In this document: piece by piece, positions 50,041 through 50,608 of the stretch | How the letters are laid out: every line of letters begins with the position of its first letter | How positions within the stretch are numbered: the first letter of the stretch is position 1 | Assembly (NCBI GenBank): GCA_964016885.1 | Contig: OZ024742.1 | Location: forward strand, 18,910,001-18,974,000 | Reading direction: 5' to 3' | Origin: Eledone cirrhosa | Lineage: Eukaryota | Length of the DNA: 64,000 nt | Position numbers and translations under genes: made by a program | The notes under the pieces: model-generated | What the model saw: only the letters and a program-made list of their open reading frames with translations | Told to the model about the DNA's origin: nothing | The model's database searches: none

Positions 50041-50608
50041 TGGAATAAATGCTCTGAAATAGCGATATATATGTGAATATAGACATAGAATATTCGAAAA
50101 TATTCTGTATGTTTATAATAAACATTTTGAAGACCTAATCGCTATAGAATAGAATACGTCACGTATTACAATTAGATTCTCGACAAAAGCAAGGGAAGTA
50201 ATCTACGCGTTTCATTCTTGTTAGAATTCATCAGGACTATATATCCAGTGCTTTTATCGAGAATGACACAGCTAGAGACTTATAGAATACTTAGCTGTGT
50301 ACAGGAACTGGTTTGAAAGAGCGGTTGCCGGTCCGGCAGAAATTAGAAATTGGAATAAATGCTCTGAAATAGCGATATATATGTGAATATAGACATAGAA
50401 TATTCGAAAATATTCTGTATGTTTATAATAAACATTTTGAAGACCTAATCGCTATAGAATAGAATACGTCACGTATTACAATTAGATTCTCGACAAAAGC
50501 AAGGGAAGTAATCTACGCGTTTCATTCTTGTTAGAATTCATCAGGACTATATATCCAGTGCTTTTATCGAGAATGACACAGCTAGAGACTTATAGAATAC
50601 TTAGCTGT
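50041..50608 (-). mobile_element. 310-bp tandem unit (~1.8 copies) with minimal hammerheads at 50199-50239 and 50509-50549
   Basis: Minus strand reads TAGTC-CTGATGA-ATTCT(AACA)AGAAT-GAAA-CGCG-TA-GATTA; the two copies appear identical; (TA)n on both sides. Confidence 0.88.

Follow-up and report, generated by a model that had tools for sequence, protein, structure and literature searches.

Insertion footprints of a 310-bp hammerhead repeat in Eledone cirrhosa point to copying by a Penelope-like element

The 310-bp repeat that occurs near the end of the window (the whole stretch of DNA analysed here, 64,000 nucleotides of Eledone cirrhosa assembly GCA_964016885.1, contig OZ024742.1, positions 18,910,001 to 18,974,000) is probably a non-coding hammerhead unit that spreads by rolling-circle reverse transcription of its monomer circle, carried out by the enzyme of a Hydra Penelope-like element (PLE). 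The parts of this reading differ in strength. We consider it very likely that the repeat is a young family of metazoan non-LTR retrozymes, whose cleavage and circles are predicted, and equally so that a PLE mobilises it. A monomer circle is quite likely to be the template, and two-ended priming on one such template seems fairly probable, while as to the partner PLE we lean towards two Hydra-type families called X and Y below. Copying of monomer circles by a PLE is a route long proposed and unproven. The element class is known and the link to PLEs has already been proposed; what is new is the insertion footprints, which bear on whether a PLE copies retrozyme arrays from circles or the arrays grow in place, and on the origin of the inverted arm and one-sided tail of PLEs.

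Anatomy of the window copy

The window copy (Table 1) consists of 1.84 units, in agreement with the original prediction of about 1.8 identical units: positions 50041-50298 and 50351-50608 align with 0 mismatches, and the period-310 match spans 50039-50298 and 50349-50608. We numbered the unit by phase, phase 1 being the first base 3' of the predicted cut. The predicted cuts lie 310 nt apart and (TA)n borders the element on both flanks, both as previously described. The element had also been said to hold no ORF, and among ATG ORFs of at least 25 aa wholly within it the longest has 30 aa; there is no ORF for reverse transcriptase (RT) plus GIY-YIG in it. ARAGORN called no tRNA in the element, and a tRNA origin of the unit was rejected on that result. 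The G+C content of the unit is 106/310.

The copy has the long 3' end of the two that the family uses. Its 5' junction shows no inverted arm, and a target-site duplication is not discernible there inside (TA)n. The variant G274A abolishes the sixth pair of stem I and so weakens that stem; it has 4 exact matches in the genome, namely both window units and one unit in each of two other arrays. The window copy is an atypical member, single-armed and 5'-truncated, of a family that is mostly head-to-head.

Table 1. Features of the window copy, of its surroundings and of the sister family (window coordinates unless a locus is named).
Feature	Position	Strand	Remarks
Retrozyme insertion, single arm	50041..50608	-	From phase 216 to phase 163-165
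Predicted 310-nt monomer, cut to cut	50204..50513	-	
Type I hammerhead 1, 41 nt	50549-50509	-	Predicted cut after 50514 (GUA)
Type I hammerhead 2, 41 nt	50239-50199	-	Predicted cut after 50204 (GUA)
'Tail'	50041..50074	-	Spans from the short 3' end of the family (phase 127-139) to the long one (phase about 160-172)
5' truncation junction	50605..50612	-	Directly into (TA)n
(TA)n tract at the element's 3' end	49780..50040	.	Target microsatellite
(TA)n tract at the element's 5' end	50609..53916	.	
Variant G274A	50240..50240	-	Near-private; also at 50550, hence in both units
Predicted long stem carrying the hammerhead	50250..50502	-	Phases 12-28 with 250-264 (50502-50486 with 50264-50250)
Predicted G+C hairpin	50328..50338	-	Phases 176-186; two of three PLE fusions join just 3', at phases 190 and 191
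Hydra-type PLE of the window (PLE-W)	36330-39990	-	DKT and CxCX5C motifs, criteria from PMC8557442
Hammerhead of PLE-W	36418-36364		
Second hammerhead family, 465-bp unit	1-4470		Also in L044 upstream; head-to-head, about 11.5 + 4.8 units
Diverged single copy of the 465-bp family	48490-48940		Intact hammerhead; about 1.1 kb from the retrozyme copy, same TA-rich block
Hammerhead-like motifs, longer stems	16533-16598, 29211-29259	+, +	Probably ends of other PLE-type elements
LINE-like RT ORFs	25914-28046, 53950-55434, 57166-58728	+, +, -	Pfam RVT_1; zf-RVT in 57166-58728
G-rich 71-bp tandem repeat	60201-61893		About 24 copies
Sister family loci	L177:1909-2454; L180-L185		

The family had been called independent. 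This holds for sequence, because the unit has no alignable match to the 465-bp hammerhead family of the same window; homology between the two was accordingly rejected. The ends of that second family differ by about 69 nt, one being long and one short, and its hammerhead has the AACA loop II found in the 310-bp unit, with a different palindrome.

Hammerhead motif and predicted fold

A structure-aware hammerhead scan of both strands of the window yielded the two motifs of the copy. Each is composed of a 5-bp stem I, CUGAUGA, a 5-bp stem II with an AACA loop, GAAA, the palindrome ACGCGU and GUA. Across the family helix I has 6 bp (5 in the window copy) and helix II 4-5 bp, and the palindromic helix III is present. 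Two 41-nt minimal hammerheads with a CGCG stem III had been claimed; the motifs and their GUA site stand, but the minimal label does not. The min-HHR of PLEs is described with a helix III lacking an insert, a helix II of 7-8 bp and a helix I of 4-5 bp (PMC4209133), and we rejected that term for a motif with a helix III palindrome and a helix II of 4-5 bp. By the definitions given in that source, its layout is that of the canonical metazoan type I hammerhead, helix III being a short palindrome; this form is described as needing a second copy for efficient cutting (PMC4209133). Rfam returned 0 matches in the window scan at the gathering score; at the E-value threshold Hammerhead_HH9 appeared weakly at both sites, with 18.5 bits where the cut-off is 52 and an E-value of 0.12, and all other matches were TA-driven miRNA models.

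The 310-nt monomer is predicted to fold better than its shuffles (z -3.6 as a linear and -4.3 as a circular molecule, 0/100 shuffles equal in each). The long stem carrying the hammerhead is kept in a 66%-identical sister family, with 2 two-sided changes and 1 one-sided change. Over the 91 pairs of the predicted fold, that family has 6 two-sided and 6 one-sided changes, 25 broken pairs, 5 gapped and 49 unchanged, so that covariation support is confined to some helices. The G+C hairpin is a likely pause site.

When the whole 568-nt transcript was folded, the hammerheads were predicted to be separate, with stems I and II at 0.73-0.94 and the cross-paired helix III at 0.00. An enforced double hammerhead reached -134.7 kcal/mol against a minimum of -138.6, and at 3.9 kcal/mol above that minimum it carries zero ensemble weight. 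The dimeric ribozyme that had been envisaged for the minus-strand transcript is thus a possible fold but is not the one predicted to dominate. Given the separate folding and the cost of the double hammerhead, the predicted cleavage is plausible, yet would probably be slow or protein-assisted. The original prediction was to fall if no 310-nt product formed in vitro or in vivo; this is too strict, because in vitro no product came from 8 of 9 Xenopus retrozyme dimers (bioRxiv 10.64898/2026.07.22.740005), and cleavage of an anole PLE hammerhead occurred only with protein (PMC11167929).

Genome census and relatives

We took a census of the 3.0-Gb genome assembly with the exact 41-mer and with a core-intact hammerhead pattern holding four N positions. 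The exact 41-mer has 2,542 matches and its reversed control 0, so the motif is not there by chance; the core-intact pattern has 18,119 matches, again with 0 for the control. On the forward strand, 816 long 3' ends and 1,177 short ones abut (TA)n (reverse-strand counts, which overlapping matches inflate, were left out). Doubling these counts and dividing by 1.84 ends per locus gives a family of roughly 2,000 loci, in line with the median of 8.5 units per mapped locus. Family DNA comes to about 5.6 Mb, which adds 0.19% of hammerhead-bearing DNA to the repeat census of this genome. Such numbers of intact cores at dispersed loci, together with the anatomy of the family, support the claim of a retrozyme-like family.

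The sister family has a 318-nt unit that is identical to the 310-bp unit at 216 of 327 columns. It keeps the same two end sites and the long stem, the latter with compensatory changes, and its hammerhead has a 5-bp helix III. Its 235 pattern matches are mostly isolated, its arms measure about 1-1.7 units in 7/7 loci, and it was ORF-free in the one full unit read. In addition, L153 and L154 belong to a more diverged 312-nt subfamily, in which both end sites and the stem I pairs are kept.

A 340-nt closed contig of the unit in sequencing runs X3, X4 and X5 was considered as an RNA circle and rejected; we read it as trace DNA. In run X1 the intron of a single-copy ribosomal-protein gene is covered at a depth of about 9 with no splice joint, which marks the run as DNA, and the depth summed over the unit in X1 is not a copy number. 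Runs X3, X4 and X6 contain scattered short pieces of the same gene, mostly the high-copy repeat of its intron, with no exon-spanning contig. The matches in these runs, read as trace DNA, were used as a sign neither of circles nor of horizontal transfer.

Insertion footprints

The mapped set comprises 75 loci: the window copy, 34 chosen regardless of their ends, and 40 taken from end listings, about half of these 40 having been chosen as visible pairs. L122 and L123 may be one duplicated insertion; the set excludes the third, incomplete arm of L122 as well as L090 and L091, which are continuation stretches. At 63 of the 75 loci two arrays lie head to head, antisense then sense, with both 3' ends outward, and the reverse order never occurs; the other 12, the window copy among them, are single-armed. 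Among the two-armed loci 61 are complete, and every one of them combines a long with a short 3' end, as do all 27 loci in this comparison that were chosen regardless of ends; the other 2 of the 63 were incompletely covered. L153, which lies outside the 75, has two long ends. Either end type may sit on the longer arm (36 versus 25).

Where the arms meet they abut with 0-5 nt of overlap in 46 of 63 loci. Unrelated phases are joined in 51/63, and near-mirror junctions number 12/63 against 6.3 expected, so some fold-back may occur. The 5' phases are non-uniform (chi-square p 0.006), and we call them scattered instead of random. Arms range from 0.2 to 27 units and arrays reach 28; the arrays run straight into (TA)n, and no LTR structure was seen at the loci read. 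At L112:1599-1870, about 270 bp of unrelated G+C-rich sequence has been captured between the arms, with no match among the sequences compared.

We read the paired long and short ends as the PLE 'tail' signature. PLE insertions have two hallmarks, a truncated arm in inverted orientation and a tail of 30-40 nt that only one end carries (PMC8557442; PMC3846280). In vitro this tail is flanked by two RT start sites, the enzyme cutting and extending both strands (PMC11167929).

Variation within and between loci

Variants were scored against the family majority in about 698 units. There were 111 substitutions fixed in all covering units of a locus (90 of them across both arms), and beside these 97 singletons, 10 partial variants and 6 with one unit of cover. 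The 64 loci compared carry 25 haplotypes, yet the arms of a locus were identical in 41/42 cases, as against 371 of 5,734 between-locus pairs. Twelve alleles are fixed in one locus only, G274A of the window copy among them. Such a pattern, fixed or single, would be expected if a single unit passed through a bottleneck and was then copied over and over, a scheme proposed without direct proof (PMC7229834), and it fits poorly with local expansion as set out in bioRxiv 10.64898/2026.07.22.740005. Identity of units within an array may in part come from assembly homogenisation.

Length variants and hammerhead variants were also scored. Crossings of the cut site were free of unit-specific indels in 708 of 710 cases, the other 2 having a unit-specific deletion. 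A 1-nt insertion near phase 3 is fixed in 43 units of 4 loci, and a 2-bp deletion in L111 is fixed in 22 units, in both arms. Fixed hammerhead variants fall at N7, loop II, the base of stem II and stem I, and none in the catalytic core or the palindrome, one or the other of which is broken in 6 single units; this count of core conservation is biased by the 34 loci, which were picked for likeness to the window copy.

Two loci have patterns that a single monomer circle does not explain. In L111 two variants recur every 7 units in one arm, which may reflect a multimeric template or a duplication, and in L125 the arms differ and one of them switches haplotype part-way, through a template change or conversion. 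A few recurrent partial variants occur in L106, L111 and L112. Singletons show a strand bias (40 from G, 19 from C, p 1e-4) that is limited to one arm orientation (27:9 versus 10:10), and for that reason we rejected it as a sign of copying errors.

Penelope-like element partners

The Hydra-type PLE of the window is young; its ORF is frameshifted, and its 5' end holds 6.2 copies of a 16-bp tandem repeat. The 34,276 RT candidates include at least 150 genome copies of it that are 98-100% identical, and in many of these a frame of 821 aa is open. Of 10 inverted pairs of this PLE, 9 combine a long with a short end, the two lying about 87 nt apart.

We searched for fusions in 78 retrozyme loci (the 75 plus L153-L155), comparing three PLE families. 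Three loci proved to be fused to the Hydra-type families PLE-X and PLE-Y, which are sisters, 86% identical to each other; PLE-W takes part in none of the three. At L029 a 5'-truncated Y has an open RT-EN frame, and its 3' UTR continues into 6.9 retrozyme units. At L102 X forms an inverted pair, the sense arm of which departs from the tail of X and goes on as 1.9 retrozyme units. At L153 a Y arm stands opposite a retrozyme arm, each terminating at (TA)n. The fusions join at microhomologies, and X and Y have a hammerhead and ends of their own in other copies. Template switching or co-priming within an X/Y particle would be the simplest reading, although elements that inserted later, with loss of flanking DNA, could have left the same joints. 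The ends of PLE-W, PLE-X and PLE-Y show no homology to the unit that can be aligned, and the tail of the unit is about 35 nt as against about 87 nt in PLE tails. Both points count against the PLE model, as they offer no feature by which the enzyme would recognise the unit.

Proposed mechanism and alternatives

According to the model that we favour, a tandem copy would be transcribed on the hammerhead strand. Cutting by the hammerheads would be slow and would probably call for dimers or the aid of a protein, and the 310-nt monomer set free would be ligated to a circle, a step that we infer from core conservation and from what is known of the element class; the weak helix III would keep the lone ribozyme in the circle quiet. 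The PLE protein would then break (TA)n and prime cDNA from both DNA ends on one template, as the footprint suggests. PLE-X and PLE-Y are the candidate enzymes, and the long and short ends would place two start sites about 26-35 nt apart on the template, at phases about 130 and 165. Each cDNA would run for 0.2-27 units, and the far ends would be joined head to head with the small overlaps and scattered phases described above. Where a single arm is kept, its far end would join the other (TA)n end; the window copy would be such a one-armed product, with G274A already present in its template.

Long linear multimeric transcripts could serve a PLE in place of a circle, the hammerhead then only trimming transcripts. 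We regard this as unlikely, even though a homogeneous source array would likewise yield identical arms, the 7-unit recurrence of L111 suits a multimeric template, and the anole PLE inserts in vitro with no need for hammerhead cleavage (PMC11167929). From such a template a fresh mutation should reach just one of the n units of an array; instead, 12 alleles are each found throughout the units of one locus, partial variants number 10 against 111 fixed ones, and the deletion of L111 and the 1-nt insertion are fixed throughout their 22 and 43 units. With either template, the second, inverted arm might be copied as DNA from the first arm through self-priming or fold-back, a hypothesis put forward for PLEs (PMC3846280). 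Identical arms would follow directly and the 12 near-mirror junctions agree, but the 51 junctions between unrelated phases do not, nor does the presence of either end type on the longer arm. The arms of L153 come from two different elements and those of L125 differ in haplotype, and 35 junction-near singletons of longer arms are unmirrored, which counts only if they were born during copying. Fold-back as the general source of the second arm seems to us quite improbable.

Two further explanations were weighed. The unit might be the terminal repeat of an undetected autonomous PLE, with the arrays as truncated by-products, and 24 of 57 Xenopus retrozyme families do match known elements, mostly PLE ends (bioRxiv 10.64898/2026.07.22.740005); moreover, a divergent parent would stay hidden, because the searches put near-identical copies at the top. 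Against this, the unit is never the regular end after an ORF (0/78 loci), the fused PLEs bear their own hammerhead and ends elsewhere and are joined at microhomologies, and the sister family is likewise ORF-free where a full unit was read, so that we hold such a parent to be highly unlikely. Hardly any credence can be given to an ordinary satellite, which would have begun with the insertion of a lone unit or a solo PLE terminal repeat and then grown on the spot through unequal crossing-over, a process discussed in bioRxiv 10.64898/2026.07.22.740005. Tandem arrays do expand locally, and the partial variants of L106, L111 and L112 suit local duplication; but expansion in place does not yield opposed arms of one haplotype, fixed long and short ends and scattered inner junctions, and it sits badly with the near absence of partial variants and with about 2,000 dispersed sites. 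We consider the satellite explanation largely refuted already. These models can be separated from sequence alone because one genome holds some 2,000 insertions that are nearly identical, along with many haplotypes and young Hydra PLEs with intact ORFs.

Returning to copying of a monomer circle by a PLE, we offer a more specific version, tentatively and at slightly less than an even chance. Two polymerases of one PLE dimer would copy the same 310-nt circle simultaneously, 26-35 nt apart, from both ends of the break; a hammerhead active only as a dimer would keep the circle intact for long arrays; and the RNA, instead of being an offshoot of the PLE's own end, would travel as a viroid-like passenger whose structure is what is recognised. 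The idea that a dimer-only hammerhead spares the circle comes from the sister family, where helix III has 5 bp and the arms are short at all 7 loci, a contrast that age confounds because that family is more diverged. If this version is true, co-copying by a dimer would alone explain the PLE tail, head-to-head inversion and retrozyme arrays.

Relation to known systems

The family resembles the metazoan non-LTR retrozymes of Cervera and de la Pena 2020 (PMC7229834), which have tandem units of 150-450 bp, low G+C and a type I hammerhead per unit, no ORF, a well-folded predicted circle and PLEs in the same genome. The original prediction that 310 bp fits this class is confirmed, the unit being within that range and below 50% G+C. 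The commonest haplotypes also share a U-U at the base of helix II with the axolotl HHR_Amex2 (PMC7229834). For those retrozymes circles and cleavage have been demonstrated, whereas for the 310-bp family they are predicted; on the other hand, relative to the main text of PMC7229834, head-to-head arrays with long and short ends, (TA)n targeting and PLE fusions are found only here.

That PLE machinery mobilises retrozymes was put forward by Li, Clavereau, Pollet 2026 (bioRxiv 10.64898/2026.07.22.740005) on the basis of co-occurrence and terminal-repeat homology, with arrays taken as local expansion. Here, by contrast, the unit has no homology to the PLE ends compared, and the footprints suggest that the arrays arise in the act of insertion. 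Retrozyme arrays that lie head to head and pair a long with a short end, arms of shared haplotype and Hydra PLE fusions are unreported in the main texts of the sources cited, which are largely open-access; the supplements of PMC7229834 and bioRxiv 10.64898/2026.07.22.740005 may show such structures.

For the priming step a close parallel is the anole Poseidon PLE (Frangieh et al. 2024, PMC11167929), with two internal start sites flanking a 30-40-nt tail, both strands cut and extended at AT-rich DNA, and a predicted dimer. That element belongs to another clade and was supplied with a linear template in vitro, and use of both sites on one molecule per insertion is undemonstrated for it. The insertions themselves resemble those of the Hydra-clade PLEs (Craig et al. 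2021, PMC8557442) in their (TA)n target, hammerhead, inverted 5'-truncated arm and tail at one end; those elements encode RT and a GIY-YIG endonuclease, whereas the unit described here is non-coding and forms arrays of up to 28 units.
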